Origin: an uncultured Actinomycetes bacterium
GTDB taxonomy: Bacteria > Actinomycetota > Thermoleophilia > Gaiellales > JAICJC01
Direction of reading: 5' to 3'
Assembly: GCA_963809325.1 (NCBI GenBank)
Contig: CAWEIZ010000001.1
Span: 145,961 to 209,960, forward strand
DNA: 64,000 nucleotides
Under the pieces are notes generated by a model. The model saw only the letters and a list, made by a program, of their open reading frames with translations. It was not told the DNA's origin and searched no databases. This document shows positions 42,657-51,071 of this stretch, piece after piece; within the stretch, counting starts at the first letter, position 1; each line of letters starts with the position of its first letter. The translations under genes were made by a program, and so were the position numbers.

Positions 42657-44099
42657 CTACCCGATGAGCGTCCAGCGCTTCGCAGCGCGGGCGAGCGCCC
42701 TCAGCGTCTCCGGAAGCTCGTCTCGAGCCTGAGCGCGGCGGACGGTCTCCTGCTCGACCAGCCGACCGGCCGCGACCGCCACGGCCGAATCGGCACCGGC
42801 AGCCAGGGCACGCAGGCGCTCCTCGGCGACGACGGCGTCCTGGTGGGTGCCGAGCACGTCCTGGAGGCCCTTCGCGGCGCGGACGAACGCCTGCCCCTGG
42901 CGGTCGTCCGGGAGCGCCGCCAGCTCGCCCGCGTACCGCGCGCGCTTGCCCGCGATCCGGAGGCGGTGCATCGCCGCATCGTCGGGCTCCGCGCCCGCCC
43001 GGCGCGCCGCCTTGCGCATCCGCCTGTACTCGCTCCTGACGAGCGCCCCCATCCGCAGGCCGCGCCCCGCGAGCTGCGGGCTCCCTGCCTCGGCGACCAG
43101 GCGCTCGACCAGCGCGAAGTACCGCGGGCTGCCGAGCGCGGCGAGCACTCGAGCCCGGGCAGCCGCCCGGTCGGCGGTGAGGCCGTCGAGCACGTACGCG
43201 CCTCCCTCGGAGTCGGCCTCGCCGAGCCGTTCGACTCGCGGCAGGAACTCCTCGACGAGGACGTCGAGATCGCGCGCGGCGCTCGTCTCGCCTGCCAGCC
43301 ACCCGAGCTCTGTGCGAAGCCCCTCCGCCCACCGCTCGTCGAGCCCCGGCCGCGCGGCTCGGAGCAGGGCGCGCATGCGCCGCGTCGCAACCCGGAAGTC
43401 GTGCAGCGGCTCGGAGCCCAGCCCGAGGCGAACGGCGGGATCGGCGCGCAGCATCGCCCGGACCTGCGCGTCGAGCATCGCGGCGAGGCGCCCCTCGGCC
43501 GTCGTCTCCGCAGTGACGGCCGTCCCCGCGGCGGCCGTCAGATCGAGCACGCGGAACACCTTCGGCCGCTCGTCCCCGACCACCGCCCCCGCGCGGCGCA
43601 GGGTCTTCACAAGCCGGCGCATGTCGGCCTCGCCACCGGCCGGCAGGAGCTCGACCTCGACCTCGTCGAGCCGGGTCTGGACAGCCGACTCGTCCTCGAC
43701 CGTCACGACATCGTGGAAGACGTCCGCAACGGCGACGTCGTCGCGGAATACCCGCCGGCCCAGGCGGCGCGTGCGAAGCGTGGCGACGAGGCCGAGCGGC
43801 GCGCCGTGCAGGTGTGCCGCGAGCAGCTCCAGGGCCTCCGGCGGCGGGTCGGTCCCGCGGCCCGCGAGCTCGATCTCGAACCTGCCGCCCTCGGCGGGCA
43901 GCTTCAGCTGCCAGCGGACGCTGCGCGCACGCGTCCGCCGGCGCAGCGTGATCCCGGCGGCGGCGAGGCGGTGGTCGGGCGTGTCGTAGTACGCCGAGAC
44001 GAGCGTGACCGTGCGCAGGCGCTCACCGGGCAGCTCCGGGAGGAGGAACCCCTCCGAGACGTCCAGCTTGCGCTCCCGCTCGAGCTCGTAGACGGCCAT
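42657..44099 (-). CDS. CYTH + CHAD two-domain protein (triphosphate-tunnel / polyphosphate-associated)
   Basis: 480 aa. N-terminal ELERERKLDV (ExExK). CHAD-type HDFRVATRRMRALLR and repeated RIAGKRARY helices. Confidence 0.8.
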   Translation of the reverse strand: MAVYELERERKLDVSEGFLLPELPGERLRTVTLVSAYYDTPDHRLAAAGITLRRRTRARSVRWQLKLPAEGGRFEIELAGRGTDPPPEALELLAAHLHGAPLGLVATLRTRRLGRRVFRDDVAVADVFHDVVTVEDESAVQTRLDEVEVELLPAGGEADMRRLVKTLRRAGAVVGDERPKVFRVLDLTAAAGTAVTAETTAEGRLAAMLDAQVRAMLRADPAVRLGLGSEPLHDFRVATRRMRALLRAARPGLDERWAEGLRTELGWLAGETSAARDLDVLVEEFLPRVERLGEADSEGGAYVLDGLTADRAAARARVLAALGSPRYFALVERLVAEAGSPQLAGRGLRMGALVRSEYRRMRKAARRAGAEPDDAAMHRLRIAGKRARYAGELAALPDDRQGQAFVRAAKGLQDVLGTHQDAVVAEERLRALAAGADSAVAVAAGRLVEQETVRRAQARDELPETLRALARAAKRWTLIG

Positions 44100-44239: not shown

Positions 44240-44608
44240 CTACGATACTTCGCCGTCGCCGTCCTCCTCGAGCCACGTCGTCTCCATGGCCGGCGCCGTG
44301 TGGATGGTGACCATCCGCAGCCGCCCGGGGCCGAGGCCCTTGAAGCCGTGCGCCGTGTTGGGCGGGACGACGACGATCTCGCCCGCCTCCGCCTCGATGA
44401 ACCCGTCGCCGTACCGGAACCGGCCGCGGCCCTCGAGCACGATGAACGTCTCCGAGTACGGGTGGGTGTGGGGGTCGGGACCCTCGCCCGGGCCCGAGTC
44501 GACGACGAAGCCGGACACATCCGAGCCACCGGCGTCGCGTCCCTCCCAGCTGCCCTTCGTCGCGCCCGCTTCGTCGCGCCAGGTGGGGAGCGCGTCCTCG
44601 GTCGCCAT
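44240..44608 (-). CDS. Cupin-domain protein
   Basis: 122 aa. Cupin motifs HTHPYSETFIVLEG and VVVPPNTAHGF. Confidence 0.7.
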   Translation of the reverse strand: MATEDALPTWRDEAGATKGSWEGRDAGGSDVSGFVVDSGPGEGPDPHTHPYSETFIVLEGRGRFRYGDGFIEAEAGEIVVVPPNTAHGFKGLGPGRLRMVTIHTAPAMETTWLEEDGDGEVS

Positions 44609-44634: not shown

Positions 44635-44698
44635 TGAAACATTGGCATCAGGCGCCGGTGTTTCACCTGAAACACAGGTACCAGGTACAGGTGTTTCA
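44635..44698. promoter_or_regulatory. Array of four TGAAACA/TGTTTCA half-sites (two TGAAACA-N17-TGTTTCA units sharing a central 18-bp palindrome)
   Basis: Half-sites at 44635-41 (+), 44659-65 (-), 44668-74 (+) and 44692-98 (-). Central GTGTTTCAccTGAAACAC at 44658-75. AT-rich gap upstream of the cupin gene. Confidence 0.55.
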
Positions 44699-46783
44699 GC
44701 TGCCGATCAGGGGGCGCTCGCGCAGGTAGGGGAGTGCCACCGCGGGGTCGGGCCGGTCGATCTCACGCGCCAGCCGGTGGCCGTCGAAGATCGCGTCGGC
44801 GATGAGCCGCGGGGCGACGCAGTCGCCGACCCGGTAGACGGCGTCGATGCCGGCCTCCGAGAGGGCCTCCGGATCGGCGGTCAGGTCGAGATAGAGCGCG
44901 TCGTCTGAGAGCCGCTGCGTGACGAGCACGGTCGCGTCGGCCTCGATCTCGACGGGCCGCCCGACGCCGTCCTCGACCCGCATTCCACCGTCCAGGATCT
45001 CGGTCGGCGTGAGGCCGGTGCGCAGGTCGACGCCCAGCACGTGCAGGTGGAGGCGCAGCCGCAGACCCTCGAGCGTCTGGTCGCACGTCGGCGCGACGAC
45101 GTCGTACGGCGTCACGAAGGTCACGTCGTAGCCCTCGGCGCGCAGCACCTCGGCGAGGCCCACTCCGGTGAAGTAGCCCTCGCAGTCGAGGATCGCCACC
45201 CGCCGGCCCTCCGGGCGGGCGCCGTCGACCATGATGTCCTCGGGGAGCAGCACGTGCGGAAGCGCCGCGTCCGCCCCCGGGATCGGCGCCCGGGTGATCC
45301 CGTTCATGCCGTCGCCCGTCCATCGCGCACCCGTCGCGACCACGACGATCCGGGCGCCGTAGTCGCGCACCGCGTCGGCGTCGAGCGCGCTCCCGAGCAC
45401 GACGTCGACGGACGGCAGACGCTCGAGCTGGGTGCGCCGGTAGGCCACGACGTGCCCCCACTCCCCCAGCCCCGGCAGCCTCGTCACCCAGCGCATCTGG
45501 CCGCCGATGTCGTCGCCGGCGTCGGCCAGATGGACGAGGTCGAACCCGCGCTTTCCGAGCACCATCGCGCACTCCATGCCGGCCGGCCCCGCGCCGACGA
45601 CGAGCACGCCCTTGTCGGCGTTGGCCGCCCTGTCGAACCGTTCGGGATGCCAGCCCCGCCGGTGCTCCTCGCCCGCCGTCGGGTTCTGGGTACACCCGAG
45701 GTGCAGGCCCCAGACCGAACGCGAGTAGCACGCGTTGCACCCGATGCACTCGCGCACCTCGTCGTAGCGGCCCTCCTCGATCTTGCGCGGAAGGAACGGA
45801 TCGGAGATCGACGGCCGCGCGGCGCCGATCAGGTCGGCGTGGCCGCCGCGGATGACCTCGGCCATCTTGTCGGGGTCGGTGAACCGGCCGACGACGACCA
45901 CCGGCTTGGAGGTGGCCTCCTTGGCCCGACCCGACCATTCGAGCTGGTAGCCCTGCTCGTAGAACCGCGACGGGCCGGCGTCGAGCCGCCCCATGCCGGC
46001 CATCGACCCGATCGTGACATCCCAGAGGTCGACCATCGGGTCGGCAGCGCGAATGAATTCGAGCCCCTCCTCGAGCTGGACGCCGGACAGCTCGAGTGTG
46101 TCGGCCGCGATGCGCACCGCGATCGCGCAGTCGTCCCCGATCTCGGTCTTCACCCGCTCGATCGCCTCGAGCCAGAACCGGCTGCGGTTCTCGAACGAGC
46201 CGCCGTAGGCGTCGGTGCGGCGGTTGAAGACGGGAGAGAGGAACTGGGTGGGCAGGTAGGTGTGCGACCCGTACACGTAGAGGATGTCGAACCCCGCCGT
46301 GCGGGCCCGCCGCGCCGCCGCGACCCACTCGTCCTGCACCCGGCGGATATCGGCTGCCTCCATCACCTTGGGCACCGTGACGCCGTCCCAGTCGCTTGCG
46401 ATCTGGGACGGCGCAAGCGGCGGGAGGCGCGACTCGCGCTGCTCGGCGAAGAGCCCGCCGTGCCACAACTCGACCCCGGCGAGCGCGCCGTTCTCGTGCG
46501 CGGCGTCGGCCATGAGCGCGAGGGCGCGCATGTCCTCGTCGTCCCACAGGCGGGCCGACGTGTAGGGCTTCTCGTCCGACTCGGGGCTGATCGAGCAGTA
46601 CTCGGTGCACACCGCCGCCCAACCGCCCTCGGCCTTCATGCCGCGAAACGCCGCCTGCGTCCACGGCTTCTCGACACCGAAGCCCGTGCAGTGCGGCACC
46701 TGGTAGAAGCGGTTCCGCAGTGTGCGCGGCCCGATGGGCACCTCCTCGAAGAGGATGTCGTGACGGGCGAGGCGCTCGGGCAT
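44696..46783 (-). CDS. Trimethylamine/dimethylamine/histamine dehydrogenase-family flavoprotein (FMN + 4Fe-4S + ADP-binding domains)
   Basis: 695 aa. N-terminal LRNRFYQVPHCTGFG closely matches the TMADH segment carrying the Cys that binds 6-S-cysteinyl-FMN. Also KAEGGWAAVCTEYCSISPESD, the FeS motif ECIGCNACYSR, and a GxGxxG dinucleotide fold VVGAGPAG. Confidence 0.85.
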   Translation of the reverse strand: MPERLARHDILFEEVPIGPRTLRNRFYQVPHCTGFGVEKPWTQAAFRGMKAEGGWAAVCTEYCSISPESDEKPYTSARLWDDEDMRALALMADAAHENGALAGVELWHGGLFAEQRESRLPPLAPSQIASDWDGVTVPKVMEAADIRRVQDEWVAAARRARTAGFDILYVYGSHTYLPTQFLSPVFNRRTDAYGGSFENRSRFWLEAIERVKTEIGDDCAIAVRIAADTLELSGVQLEEGLEFIRAADPMVDLWDVTIGSMAGMGRLDAGPSRFYEQGYQLEWSGRAKEATSKPVVVVGRFTDPDKMAEVIRGGHADLIGAARPSISDPFLPRKIEEGRYDEVRECIGCNACYSRSVWGLHLGCTQNPTAGEEHRRGWHPERFDRAANADKGVLVVGAGPAGMECAMVLGKRGFDLVHLADAGDDIGGQMRWVTRLPGLGEWGHVVAYRRTQLERLPSVDVVLGSALDADAVRDYGARIVVVATGARWTGDGMNGITRAPIPGADAALPHVLLPEDIMVDGARPEGRRVAILDCEGYFTGVGLAEVLRAEGYDVTFVTPYDVVAPTCDQTLEGLRLRLHLHVLGVDLRTGLTPTEILDGGMRVEDGVGRPVEIEADATVLVTQRLSDDALYLDLTADPEALSEAGIDAVYRVGDCVAPRLIADAIFDGHRLAREIDRPDPAVALPYLRERPLIGS

Positions 46784-48225
46784 CAGTCGGCTTCCAGCTG
46801 AGTCTTACGGCGGGCGATGAACTCGCGCAGCTCCTCGTCGAGGGCGTCGTCGATCCCGGGGTCCTCGTAGCTCTCGAGCAGCTTCTTCCACTCGTCGGTG
46901 GCCGCCCGGTCGGCCGTCACGGCGCCGCGCTTCTCCCAGGTCACGTAGGCCTGCGAGCGGAAGAGCGGGCTCATGAACACCCAGTCCTTGAAGTGCGCGA
47001 GCGTGTGGTCGGAGGCGAGGAACATCCCACCCGGGCCCTCCTGACGGACGGCGTCCATCGCGAACTCCTCCTCGCTCATCCCGATCCCGCCGGAGAGGAC
47101 GTCGAACACCCGCAGGAGCTCGAGGTCGAGCACGAACTTCTCGTACGAGGCGGTGAGGCCGCCCTCCAGCCACCCGGCGGCGTGCATCACGAGGTCGCAG
47201 CCGCCGATCATCGTCGCCCACAGCGTGTTGGTCGTCTCGGCCGCCGCCTGGAAGTCGAGGGCGTTCGACGAGCACAGGCCGCCGCCGCCGCGGTACGGCA
47301 GCCCGTAGCGGCGGGCGAGGAGGCCGCCGGCGAGGGTGCCGAGGATCGACTCGGGCGTCCCGAACGCGGGGCCGCCGGTGCGCATGTCGACCGCGGTGAA
47401 GAACGACCCGAAGAGGCACGGAGCGCCCGGGCGCACGGCCTGGACGAGGGCGATGCCCGAGAGGGCCTCGGCCACCTGCTGGGCGAGCCCGGCGGCGATG
47501 CTGACGGGTGCCGTGGCGCCCGCGAGCAGAAACGGCGTGACGATCACCGGCTGGCCGGCGACCGCCCACTCCATGAGGGCGTCGGCCATGAGGCCGTCCC
47601 ACACGAGCGGGCTGTTGGGGTTGACGACACCCATGATCGCGGGCGTCTCCTCGATCGTCTCGCGCCCGCCGAGCGCGATCGCGGCCAGCTCGACGGCGTC
47701 GCGAGCCTTCGGGCCGGACGTCCCGTAGCAGATGAGCGGCTTGTCCGACCATCGCAGGATGGCGTAGTCCATGTCCATGTGGCGCGTGCGCTCGTCGAGG
47801 TCGCAGGCCTCGACCGTGCCGCTCTGCTGGCACGTCATGAGGTCGGCGGCGTGCGCCATCTTGATCAGCTCGAGGTAGTCGGAGATCGCGCCCTCGCGGC
47901 GGCCGCGCTCGAGGTCGGCGCAGAACGGCGACCCGCCGACGGGCGTGAGCACCGGCTTCGCCCCGCCGATCCTGACCGACCGGGCGGGGTTCCGGGCCCC
48001 GAGCGTGAACGACGCCGGTGCGCGCCCGGCCATCTCCATCACGAACTCGCGGTCCCAGCGGACGCGCTCGCCGTCGATGTCCTGGCCCAGCCCCGCGAGC
48101 AGGGCCAGAGCGCCCTCGTGGCGGACGTCCGTCCCGATCTCCTCGAGGATGGTCATGGCGTGCTCGTGGACGGCGTCGAGCGCCTCGCCCGAGAGCACGG
48201 CCGAGATGCCGGCGTCAGCGAACAT
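46783..48225 (-). CDS. MttB-superfamily methyltransferase, non-pyrrolysine type (glycine-betaine/quaternary-amine methyltransferase-like)
   Basis: 480 aa uninterrupted ORF with no in-frame TAG. MttB-like pattern throughout (e.g. IHEHAMTILEEIG-type N-terminus, NPNSPLVWD, AGWLEGGL). Confidence 0.75.
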   Translation of the reverse strand: MFADAGISAVLSGEALDAVHEHAMTILEEIGTDVRHEGALALLAGLGQDIDGERVRWDREFVMEMAGRAPASFTLGARNPARSVRIGGAKPVLTPVGGSPFCADLERGRREGAISDYLELIKMAHAADLMTCQQSGTVEACDLDERTRHMDMDYAILRWSDKPLICYGTSGPKARDAVELAAIALGGRETIEETPAIMGVVNPNSPLVWDGLMADALMEWAVAGQPVIVTPFLLAGATAPVSIAAGLAQQVAEALSGIALVQAVRPGAPCLFGSFFTAVDMRTGGPAFGTPESILGTLAGGLLARRYGLPYRGGGGLCSSNALDFQAAAETTNTLWATMIGGCDLVMHAAGWLEGGLTASYEKFVLDLELLRVFDVLSGGIGMSEEEFAMDAVRQEGPGGMFLASDHTLAHFKDWVFMSPLFRSQAYVTWEKRGAVTADRAATDEWKKLLESYEDPGIDDALDEELREFIARRKTQLEAD

Positions 48226-49372
48226 CGCCGGCGAGCGTATCGGATCGCCTGATGGAGAGGCCGAGGGAGGCCGCCGCCCCGACGGCGACGGCGATGCAGC
48301 ACGCGGCGACGACGGCGTGCCAGCCGTCGTCGAGCCACAGGCCCGGCAGATAGGCGCCGGCCCCGCCGAGCACGTAGTAGATCGTCTGGTGCAGGCTCGT
48401 GGCCGTGCCCCGGTGGTGGCTCACGAGCCGGGGGATCAGGAGCTGGCACGTGGTCACGGTCGAGAACATCGCCGCGGCCAGGAGCGCCAGGCCGGCGATG
48501 ACCGCGGCCAGGTTGTCGACGAGCGTGAGAACGGCTCCGGCTCCGGCGCAGGCCAGCAGGAACGGCAGCAGCCGCTGCGGCCCGATCCGCGCGGCGGCGT
48601 GGCCGACGAACGGCACGATCGCGCCGACCACCCACACCGCGTAGACGAGTCCCGCAGCGCCGAGCGTGAGGTCGAACGGCGCCGCGGTGAGGCGGTGGGT
48701 GGCGAAGGTGAAGATGCCGACGAACGCGAAGAACGTCGCCCCGGCCGCCACGGCGTTCAGGAGCAGCGAGACGTTCCGGGCGTGCTCGGCGACGACGGCG
48801 CGCAGATCGCGGCGGACGTGGCGCGGCTCGTCGCGCGGCAGCCAGAAGTGCATGGCGAGCGCCCCGGCGACGGTCGGGACGGTCAGCGCCTCGAGGGCGA
48901 CGCGCCAGCTCGTCCAGTCGGCGACGATCGCTGTCCCCACCCGCCCGACGAGCCCGCCGAAGACGAGCGAGGCGGTGTAGGCGCCCATCGCCGCCCCGGC
49001 GGCCGGCCCGCGGAACCGCTCGGTGACGTAGGGCACGGCCACGGTCAGGAGCCCCGGCATGAGCAGCCCCTGGCAGGTCCGGATCGCGAGCAGGGCCGGC
49101 AGGCTCGGTGCGAGGCCGGCGACGGCGGTCGGGACGCAGATCATGGCGGCGGCGGCCGCCATGACCCTGGCCCGGCCGAGCCGGTCCGAGAGCGGCCCGG
49201 CCACCCAGCCGCCCGCCGCCACCGCCAGGACGACGACCGTGATCGTGAGGCCGGCCGCAGCGGGCGACGTCCCCAGGCCGCGCTCGATGTCGGGCAGGAT
49301 CGCCTGCGTCGAGTACATGTTTGCGAACATCGCCGACGCGCCCAGGAAGAGCGCGATGCCGGGGCGGGTCAC
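48215..49372 (-). CDS. MFS transporter
   Basis: 385 aa. 12-TM pattern and MFS loop motif GPLSDRLGRARV. Overlaps both neighbours. Confidence 0.8.
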   Translation of the reverse strand: MTRPGIALFLGASAMFANMYSTQAILPDIERGLGTSPAAAGLTITVVVLAVAAGGWVAGPLSDRLGRARVMAAAAAMICVPTAVAGLAPSLPALLAIRTCQGLLMPGLLTVAVPYVTERFRGPAAGAAMGAYTASLVFGGLVGRVGTAIVADWTSWRVALEALTVPTVAGALAMHFWLPRDEPRHVRRDLRAVVAEHARNVSLLLNAVAAGATFFAFVGIFTFATHRLTAAPFDLTLGAAGLVYAVWVVGAIVPFVGHAAARIGPQRLLPFLLACAGAGAVLTLVDNLAAVIAGLALLAAAMFSTVTTCQLLIPRLVSHHRGTATSLHQTIYYVLGGAGAYLPGLWLDDGWHAVVAACCIAVAVGAAASLGLSIRRSDTLAGDVR

Positions 49373-50523
49373 GACTCGGCGACGTGCGGCGGCCCGGGCA
49401 GGACGCGCAGCGAGATCTCGCCGCGCAGGAGTCGCAGGAGCGATTCGCCGGCGAGCTCGTGCCGCCAGCCGGAGAGCAGCGGGTGCGGGCGGCCGGAGTC
49501 AACCGCCTGGCCCGCGATGAACGCCTCGAGATCGGCCCTCGTCGCGACGAGCTCCGACGCCACCCCTGCCGCCGCGCACCGGGCCTGGAGCACGGCGGAG
49601 GCGAGCGGCAGCACCACGCGGATGCGGCGGCGGACATCGCCGGGAAGCTCCGCGTCGGCCTCGGGCGGCGGGCCGGGATCGGCGAGGGCGGCCAGCAGCT
49701 CGTCGAGCTGACGCCCGCGGCGGATCTGGAGCCCGCGCACGCCCTCGGCCTCCTTGGGCGTCGCCGGGCGGCGGCGGGCGAGCTCCACGAGCGTCGCGTC
49801 CTTCACGAGCCAGGCGGCGGGCAGGTCGCGGCGGCGGGCCTCGCGCTCGCGCCACGCCGCCGCCGCGCGGAGGGCCGCCAGGCCCTCGGCGCGGACCTTC
49901 CCGCGTCCGGCGACGCGGCGCCAGGCCGTCTCGGGATCCTGGACGAACGGCGCCTCGGGGCCGTAGCGAGCGGCGAGCTCCTCGGCGACCCAGGCCTCCC
50001 GGCCCTGCGAGCCAAGCCGCTTCCGGAGGGCGTCCACCGCCGCCAGGAGATAGCGGACGTCGTCGGCGGCGTACTCGATCTGCGTCGGCGTGAGCGGCCT
50101 CCGCTGCCAGTCGGTGAACCCCTCGTCGTGGCGGAGGCGGACCCGGATCGACGCCTCGAGCAGCCGCTCCAGCGACAGGGTGCCGCCGTAGCCCGCGAAC
50201 CCCGCGGCGAGCTGGGTGTCGTAGACCCGCTGCGGGCGCACGTCGTGGTGGAGGACGAACGCGGCGAGGTCGCCCGACGGCGCGTGCATCACCTTCTCGA
50301 CGGCCGGATCGGCCATGAGCTCGGCCACCGGGCCGAGCGGCGCCCCCTCGACCGGGTCGATCACGGCCAGCCGCTCGGCGGTGGCGATCTGGACGAGGCA
50401 CAGGCCGGGCGCGTACGTCCGCTCCCACACGAACTCGGTGTCGATGGCGCACCGGCCCTCGCTGCGAGCGACGTCGAGCAGCGGCCCGAGCGCCTCGGCC
50501 GTTGTGATCTGCTCGATCCGCAT
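49369..50523 (-). CDS. rnd: Ribonuclease D (DEDD 3'-5' exonuclease + HRDC)
   Basis: ORF 49369..50577 trimmed to ATG at 50523. Exo motifs AIDTEF, HAPSGDL and YAADDVRYL. Confidence 0.85.
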   Translation of the reverse strand: MRIEQITTAEALGPLLDVARSEGRCAIDTEFVWERTYAPGLCLVQIATAERLAVIDPVEGAPLGPVAELMADPAVEKVMHAPSGDLAAFVLHHDVRPQRVYDTQLAAGFAGYGGTLSLERLLEASIRVRLRHDEGFTDWQRRPLTPTQIEYAADDVRYLLAAVDALRKRLGSQGREAWVAEELAARYGPEAPFVQDPETAWRRVAGRGKVRAEGLAALRAAAAWREREARRRDLPAAWLVKDATLVELARRRPATPKEAEGVRGLQIRRGRQLDELLAALADPGPPPEADAELPGDVRRRIRVVLPLASAVLQARCAAAGVASELVATRADLEAFIAGQAVDSGRPHPLLSGWRHELAGESLLRLLRGEISLRVLPGPPHVAES

Positions 50524-50594
50524 CGCGCCCGACAGTATGCAACACGGGGTCAGACCCCAATGGTGCATGCGCATCACTGTAATCTCATGTCCGC

Positions 50595-51071
50595 ATGGAT
50601 CCCTGGGTCGTATGGGTCGTCATCGCGGTCGTCCTGATCGTGGCCGAGGCGACCACCACGGCGTTCGTCGCCATCTACTTCGGCGTCGCGGCCCTGGCGG
50701 CGGCGGGGCTCGCGCTGCTCGGGCTGGGGGTGGCGCTGCAGCTGGTGGCATTCGGCGCGCTGTCCGTCGGCGCGCTGCTCCTCACCCGGCCGGCGCTGCG
50801 CCGGTCGATGGGGCGGTCGTCCGGCCTTCGCACGGGCGTCGACGCCATGCAGGGCAAGATCGGCGTCGTCACGAGGCCGATCGCCGAGCTGGATCCGGGA
50901 CAGGTCAAGGTGGGCGGCGAGATGTGGACGGCCCGCAGCTTCTACGACGGCGAGTCGATCCCGGCCGGCACCCGCGTCGAGGTGGTCAAGGTCGAGGGCG
51001 TCACGGCGCTCGTGATCTCGGCGCCGTCACCCCACGAGAAGGACGACACGAAAGAGGGCCCCGATGCCTGA
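50595..51071 (+). CDS. NfeD-family membrane protein
   Basis: 158 aa. N-terminal TM helices and a C-terminal OB-like segment GQVKVGGEMWTARS. Precedes the SPFH gene with an 8-nt overlap. Confidence 0.8.
   Translation: MDPWVVWVVIAVVLIVAEATTTAFVAIYFGVAALAAAGLALLGLGVALQLVAFGALSVGALLLTRPALRRSMGRSSGLRTGVDAMQGKIGVVTRPIAELDPGQVKVGGEMWTARSFYDGESIPAGTRVEVVKVEGVTALVISAPSPHEKDDTKEGPDA

Follow-up and report, generated by a model that had tools for sequence, protein, structure and literature searches.

We analysed a 64-kb stretch of DNA (hereafter the window) from an uncultured actinobacterium of the order Gaiellales, in which a gene encoding a methyltransferase of the MttB superfamily (MttB1) is followed immediately by a gene encoding a flavoprotein of the trimethylamine dehydrogenase (TMADH) clade. 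We consider it rather probable that the two proteins constitute a two-step N-demethylation unit for an acidic quaternary amine of the betaine type, with the corrinoid protein provided in trans. That the two genes stay together in three families and in several unrelated gene neighbourhoods is strong evidence of functional coupling, and from the sequences we infer the chemistry, that the corrinoid protein is shared and that the substrate is acidic.

The methyltransferase and the dehydrogenase are conserved as a pair

Both genes are on the reverse strand of the window. The gene at 46783-48225 encodes MttB1 (480 aa), a predicted quaternary amine:corrinoid methyltransferase (MT1), and the gene at 44696-46783 encodes the dehydrogenase (695 aa), a TMADH-clade enzyme with FMN, 4Fe-4S and ADP domains and a predicted tertiary-amine oxidative N-demethylase. 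Their stop and start codons overlap in the sequence TGATG. A TMADH-like gene lies immediately downstream of MttB in 46 of the 55 species-level Gaiellales loci that have an MttB relative. Among 151 evenly sampled Gaiellales genomes, 49 have MttB directly in front of the TMADH-like gene (38 in the window's family and 11 in two others), a count that leaves out one pair-bearing unpublished genome (G060). The gap between the two genes is mostly 20 bp or less, reaching about 200 nt in three genomes, and the two proteins diverge in step, down to approximately 60-63% identity. The first-pass annotation of this DNA had proposed that a non-pyrrolysine MttB is coupled to a true TMADH-clade flavoprotein in an aerobic amine-demethylation module. 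The coupling is borne out, the pair does look like such a module, and the pairing is conserved far beyond chance.

The genes around the pair differ between lineages. In one genus-level group, the pair adjoins a BHMT-like mtgE in nine loci (L029, L030, L033, L037, L039, L041, L052, L053 and L055), and the layout is DUF72, the MttB1-TMADH-like pair, an S-adenosylmethionine-dependent methyltransferase (SAM-MT), MtgE, a second MttB paralog (MttB2), and then IclR and the corrinoid protein. MttB2 is within 2-4 kb of the pair in seven of these nine loci, and IclR and the corrinoid protein are within the fetched stretch in two (L030 and L041). L030 also carries a betA choline dehydrogenase gene (831 bits, above the equivalog cut-off). 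In a second family (L068, L069, L070 and L083), the order is a DAO-type FAD oxidase, MttB1, the TMADH-like enzyme, CobU and CobT; in NCBIfam, the oxidase matches aminophosphonate oxidoreductase and pipecolate oxidase best, and not SoxB. A third lineage (L066, L067 and L084) has a MocR-type regulator (GntR plus aminotransferase) and a conserved 308-aa protein upstream of the pair; this protein carries a PHP-like HxH...DH metal motif and has no Pfam match.

Active-site residues of MttB1 point to an acidic quaternary amine

On its profile match, MttB1 is a member of the non-pyrrolysine branch of the MttB superfamily: it scores 560 bits against PF06253, covering profile positions 32-499 of 500, and its 480-aa open reading frame (ORF) is uninterrupted and without an in-frame UAG. 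Its matches in the structure database include 4yyc (381 bits) and Desulfitobacterium hafniense MtgB (9yce; 335 bits over 467 residues). In MtgB, R312 and H348 are the ligands of the glycine betaine carboxylate, and Y97 and F356 are the cation-pi pair that holds its quaternary nitrogen (Picking et al. 2026, PMC13080624). Our alignment shows R312 and H348 (MtgB numbering) kept in MttB1 and in all 59 clade members examined, and both Y97 and F356 replaced by Gly across the MttB1 clade, which thus lacks the aromatic pair. MttB2, the second paralog of the window genome (42% identical to MttB1), retains Y97. Since the carboxylate ligands are kept and the aromatic pair is replaced, the substrate of MttB1 is likely an acidic quaternary amine, and not necessarily glycine betaine.

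We did not adopt glycine betaine as the substrate of MttB1, because the MtgB aromatic pair is absent and because MttB2 and four DMGDH-like genes cover the glycine betaine route. As these proteins already serve that route, we lean towards another betaine (proline betaine, gamma-butyrobetaine or carnitine), with no choice among the three.

The dehydrogenase belongs to the TMADH clade and differs in its active site

The dehydrogenase aligns over its full length with the TMADH of Methylophilus methylotrophus (1djn residues 6-690; 736 bits, E 4e-220), a score that leaves no doubt about its fold, and has the NRFYQVPHC motif with Cys30. Relative to TMADH, it keeps Cys30, Y60, S74, W105, Y169, H172, Y174, R222, D267 and the four Fe-S cysteines. 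The changes concern the loop before the catalytic Asp, where W264 is Met, E263 is Gly, E266 is Arg and one residue is inserted before D267, and W355, which falls in an alignment gap because its loop is one residue shorter in the dehydrogenase. Every MttB-linked dehydrogenase has G263, R266 and the extra residue before D267, and position 264 varies among them (M, P, A, T, Q, S, E or W). The unlinked paralogs read E-W-S-K-D at this place and thereby resemble the AEWGE-D of TMADH. We take Y60, W264 and W355 to be the bowl that binds trimethylammonium in TMADH, although a literature search on these residues returned nothing relevant; of the three, the window enzyme retains Y60 and lacks W264 and W355, so that the aromatic bowl is incomplete.

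In a maximum likelihood tree, all MttB-linked dehydrogenases form one clade (SH-aLRT 99), whose internal branching follows the three families. Neither the unlinked paralogs that these genomes also carry nor sequences with the canonical TMADH motif elsewhere in the class fall within this clade: other Thermoleophilia hold sequences with the canonical ISRWEIGGPPM, which branch separately from the linked clade and have no MttB match in their 1.5-kb flanks. Across the phylum, 400 sampled Actinomycetota genomes yielded six TMADH-like matches from outside the order, none with MttB in the 1.5-kb flanks.

The genome has two pairs of genes for the alpha and beta subunits of electron-transfer flavoprotein (ETF), on contig 8 (48.0-50.6 kb) and contig 7 (516.1-518.7 kb). 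One of them directly follows a DMGDH-sized GCV_T protein and the other adjoins a small protein with a B12-binding domain. Further TMADH-family paralogs of the genome include ones that are 30% identical to the window enzyme; these may be of the StcD, HpbA or DgcA type, whereas the window enzyme is far nearer to true TMADH. The neighbourhoods of the other paralogs (contig 8 at about 84 kb, contig 7 at about 1,179 kb and contig 2 at about 528 kb) gave no clue to a pathway. The closest paralog in the genome (contig 8, about 84.1-85.4 kb; L062 8139-9422) is 60% identical, but within its 427-aa ORF the alignment is limited to residues 93-406, and a truncation or frameshift is probable. Split MttB, corrinoid protein or TMADH genes also occur in several related metagenome-assembled genomes from long reads, consistent with assembly indels.

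The corrinoid system is encoded elsewhere in the genome

The locus had been described as being without any corrinoid protein, a statement that holds for the locus and fails for the genome. The window genome (G000; 98% complete) encodes a corrinoid set on contig 7 (1,446.6-1,451.8 kb), within a locus that spans 1,445.5-1,459.0 kb (L006 3487-17012). There, an alcohol dehydrogenase (ADH), DUF1638, a RACo-type activase, a methyl-tetrahydrofolate:corrinoid methyltransferase (MT2), a methylenetetrahydrofolate reductase (MTHFR), the corrinoid protein and IclR are followed by MttB2, an aminotransferase and a 2-hydroxyacid dehydrogenase, and then by MtgE, MttB2 being divergent from the corrinoid protein operon. 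The corrinoid protein has B12-binding_2 and B12-binding domains and its best NCBIfam match is MtgC (213 bits, below the cut-off), MT2 matches PRK07535 above the cut-off (300 bits), the ADH resembles class III or mycothiol-type alcohol or formaldehyde dehydrogenases, and the MtgE-like protein, close to MttB2, is a BHMT-like homocysteine-binding module. This is the sole set of corrinoid protein, MT2 and RACo in the genome, so that all three components of a corrinoid methyl-transfer system are present, in trans to MttB1. The puzzle of the missing corrinoid protein thus has an ordinary solution. The first-pass annotation had itself named a corrinoid protein and a methyltransferase 2 encoded elsewhere and co-regulated as what would overturn its idea of a different division of labour. 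Our search of the genome contigs found the part of this that concerns their being encoded elsewhere, and the idea is largely superseded: the corrinoid protein, MT2, activase and MTHFR lie together beside MttB2, and relatives place the pair in a corrinoid cluster or near cobU-cobT.

Comparisons with other genomes agree with the use of a corrinoid partner. Operons with the order MT2-RACo-DUF1638-MttB, with or without a corrinoid protein gene in front, end with an MttB relative at 59-64% identity, which runs counter to the notion of an MttB clade that does without such a partner. An MtgC-like corrinoid protein (E<1e-70) is found in all sampled pair-bearing genomes but two, and these two are 66-73% complete. 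Several genomes that have unlinked TMADH paralogs only (e.g., G124 and G106) have neither an MttB match nor an MtgC-like protein.

Full-length MetH was not found in the genome, and the metH model matches only three split modules (the MtgE-like protein, the pterin-binding MT2 and the corrinoid protein); by analogy with Ruegeria, the contig 7 system may also serve as a methionine synthase in split form. The 98%-complete genome yielded no CobT (PF02277) either, a hint of cobalamin salvage.

A proposed route of demethylation

A quaternary nitrogen has no lone pair and cannot be oxidised by a flavin amine dehydrogenase, and a corrinoid methyltransferase needs precisely such a cationic leaving group. 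The order of the genes, MttB and then the dehydrogenase, matches the chemical order of the steps that we propose. In the first, MttB1 would bind the betaine and pass one N-methyl group to the contig 7 MtgC-like protein, whose corrinoid would be in the Co(I) state, a role assigned by homology. The pterin-binding methyltransferase would then move the methyl group onto tetrahydrofolate, where MTHFR would oxidise it, and the RACo-type activase would restore corrinoid whose cobalt has become oxidised. In the second step, the tertiary amine, now with a lone pair, would be oxidised by the TMADH-clade enzyme, with electrons presumably flowing from the covalent 6-S-cysteinyl FMN to the 4Fe-4S cluster and on to ETF, to yield formaldehyde and a secondary amine. 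Where a DAO-type oxidase is encoded upstream of the pair, as in one family, it could remove a third methyl group.

Comparison with known systems

The aerobic MtgBCD(E) system of Ruegeria pomeroyi DSS-3 is a glycine betaine demethylase and a split methionine synthase (Mausz et al. 2025, PMC12478193), and in aerobic bacteria the MtgB paralogs, of which a genome may have up to seven, are often encoded away from one MtgC/MtgD core, which has a second role in methionine synthesis (PMC12478193). The window genome is similar in that it combines several MttB paralogs in an aerobe with PF06253 methyltransferases that lie apart from a single MtgC-type corrinoid protein. It also has, all at contig 7, the pterin-binding MtgD, the second MTHFR (metF2), the reductive activation genes and the BHMT-like MtgE. 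The differences concern the host (Actinomycetota, of the order Gaiellales, instead of Proteobacteria), the aromatic pair for glycine betaine, which MttB1 lacks, and the fixed position of MttB1 beside a TMADH-clade flavoprotein, whereas in the marine bacteria the downstream steps are assigned to other demethylases.

MttB1 shares the TIM-barrel fold of the MttB superfamily, without pyrrolysine, with D. hafniense MtgB (2qne/9yce) and with MtpB, MtcB, MtyB and MthB of Eubacterium limosum. It has the R312 and H348 of MtgB, but Y97 and F356 are Gly throughout its clade and glycine betaine specificity therefore cannot be assumed. These other proteins are from anaerobes, in which the tertiary amine is an end product that is not oxidised further. 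The dehydrogenase, in turn, is like the TMADH of M. methylotrophus W3A1 (EC 1.5.8.2; 2tmd/1djn) in its full-length three-domain architecture, Cys30, the Fe-S cysteines, Tyr169-His172-Asp267 and Arg222, and unlike it in the changes at W264, E263, E266 and the W355 loop and in a gene that, within the clade, is always preceded by MttB.

By function alone, the dehydrogenase would also be comparable to HpbA and StcD (N-methylproline) and to DgcA (dimethylglycine), which we assume to be members of the OYE/TMADH superfamily: it would act on a betaine that has already lost one methyl group, take off the methyl that remains and release formaldehyde. The pathways of HpbA, StcD and DgcA begin with a Rieske monooxygenase and not with a corrinoid methyltransferase. 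Genetic evidence shows that HpbA is needed for growth on N-methyl-L-proline (Kumar et al. 2014, PMC3950512).

Our literature searches on the MttB and TMADH gene pair and on betaine metabolism in Gaiellales returned nothing relevant. The enzyme families and the aerobic corrinoid system working in trans are known; the literature searched showed no case in which an MttB paralog is permanently coupled to a TMADH-clade enzyme whose pocket is altered.

Genes flanking the pair

The window has a GC content of 72%, and its closest relatives place it in the Gaiellales (Thermoleophilia, Actinomycetota). Upstream of the pair, and also on the reverse strand, are genes for an MFS transporter (48215-49372; 385 aa; MFS_1, 145 bits) and for RNase D (rnd; 49369-50577), and the four genes together span 44696-50577 with a GC content at third codon positions (GC3) of 0.95-0.97. 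The RNase D protein has the expected exonuclease and HRDC domains (DNA_pol_A_exo1, PF01612, 106 bits; PF00570, 43 bits) and scores 280 bits against TIGR01388, slightly under the cut-off of 299. The longest ORF of rnd would leave only 17 nt between the starts of the divergent rnd and nfeD (50577-50595), whereas a start at the ATG at 50523 widens this distance to 71 nt and fits the alignments better; this ATG is probably the true start. Read from the sequence, the junctions are GTGA between rnd and the MFS gene, an 11-nt overlap between the MFS gene and mttB, and the TGATG given above. The four overlapping genes had been placed at 44696-50523, with which the domain matches and all three junctions agree. 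For the MFS protein, NCBIfam gave only weak generic matches and no hint of a substrate.

A small cupin (44240-44608, reverse strand; 122 aa; Cupin_2, 59 bits) is encoded 88 nt downstream of the dehydrogenase and is possibly co-transcribed with it; it is kept there only among the closest relatives. Contig 2 (538.2-541.1 kb; L101 14163-17111) has a betA ortholog whose product shares 77% identity with the equivalog-scoring BetA of L030; it is followed by an MftR-type TetR and a cupin that is 43% identical to that of the window, so that small cupins follow amine-oxidising genes twice in this genome. Further downstream in the window (42657-44099, reverse strand), a 480-aa ORF with a GC3 of 0.92 is 75-89% conserved among the closest relatives and has neither a Pfam nor an NCBIfam match. 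A promoter and terminator scan of the window gave nothing usable in this GC-rich DNA.

Alternative explanations

Several observations weigh against a two-step unit for a betaine. The 64-kb window contains no corrinoid protein gene, and the flanking genes vary by lineage (rnd-MFS; DUF72, SAM-MT and MtgE; DAO and cobUT; MocR and the PHP-like protein) without converging on one compound. The sampled genomes are kin, and counts such as 49 of 151 overstate the number of independent events. The four DMGDH/SARDH-sized GCV_T proteins of the genome make the pair dispensable for the breakdown of glycine betaine. In the dehydrogenase, the apparent fit of the fixed Arg266 beside the catalytic Asp to a carboxylated substrate hangs on the position of a loop in the alignment, and the retained Y60, S74 and W105 of true TMADH are compatible with trimethylamine as a substrate. 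It is indeed conceivable, if unlikely, that the dehydrogenase is an ordinary trimethylamine or dimethylamine dehydrogenase and that MttB1 acts on an unrelated or loosely related methylamine pool (e.g., from tetramethylammonium to trimethylamine), as part of general methylated-amine catabolism. Besides these three residues, the 736-bit match to TMADH and the conservation of Cys30, the Tyr-His-Asp triad and the Fe-S cysteines would fit such an enzyme, and relatives are publicly annotated as "dimethylamine/trimethylamine dehydrogenase". However, the linked clade does not conserve two of the three bowl positions (264 is variable and the W355 loop is one residue shorter) and has a fixed Arg and an insertion next to D267. 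The sequences with ISRWEIGGPPM are those that branch separately and have no MttB match in their flanks, and the carboxylate-binding Arg and His kept in MttB1 would be superfluous for tetramethylammonium.

The tight spacing of the pair in all lineages (the TGATG overlap, or mostly about 20 bp) and its distance from corrinoid genes in most genomes could also suggest a self-contained demethylase, in which MttB1 would dispense with MtgC and either partner the dehydrogenase by binding or channelling the substrate, or give the methyl group to another acceptor. We regard this as very unlikely, and the narrower version in which MttB1 gives its product or the methyl group directly to the dehydrogenase, without a separate corrinoid protein, as slightly less likely still. 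Such a hand-over would, for aerobes, introduce a new division of labour into the MttB superfamily. An MtgC-like protein co-occurs with the pair in all but two incomplete genomes, two independent lineages have the pair inside a corrinoid supercluster or ahead of cobU-cobT, and close MttB relatives lie within operons of corrinoid protein, MT2, RACo and DUF1638. Moreover, unlinked MttB paralogs that use one common MtgC have already been published (PMC12478193), and methylation of a corrinoid is common to all characterised members of the MttB superfamily (PMC13080624). A functional four-gene operon is quite unlikely too. Here, the MFS protein would import the amine and RNase D would have a regulatory or RNA-processing role, as might be suspected because, in the window and among its closest relatives, stop and start codons overlap at each of the three junctions. 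Yet rnd and the MFS gene occur without MttB or the dehydrogenase in sister genera (L091 and L092), with the same 4-nt overlap in g2 and a 50-nt gap in g3, and rnd occurs without the MFS gene in two genomes of the window's own genus (G083 and G005). A block of SPFH-NfeD and rnd is kept in genomes whose pair lies elsewhere. Beyond the closest relatives, the pair has other contexts: the MFS gene is kept upstream in only 12 of the 46 pair loci, where MttB identity is at least 84%, and rnd is also shown in 10 of these 12. Together with the weak family matches of the MFS protein, this argues against a dedicated importer. Evidently, on these gene orders, the pair was inserted behind a pre-existing rnd-MFS unit in the sub-lineage of the window. 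As that unit is older than the pair, the inclusion of RNase D, which the first-pass annotation had found odd, needs no special explanation, and the MFS protein, which it had counted as a member of the module, is not an established partner or importer.

Implications

Conceptually, the proposed two-step unit adds little to the published aerobic MtgBCD(E) system. Only a handful of MttB paralogs are characterised, and the pairing helps to assign substrates to the orphan ones, as the product of the methyltransferase is the likely substrate of the neighbouring dehydrogenase. The automatic annotation of the MttB-linked sub-clade as "trimethylamine dehydrogenase" is probably wrong, which matters where counts of dmd-tmd genes are used as markers of methylamine cycling. 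Gaiellales are abundant and almost uncultured soil actinobacteria, and the pair suggests that they use betaines derived from plants or microbes by a hybrid route, in which the first methyl group would be saved on folate via cobalamin and the second would be burnt via the flavoprotein, to formaldehyde and with ETF as the electron acceptor.

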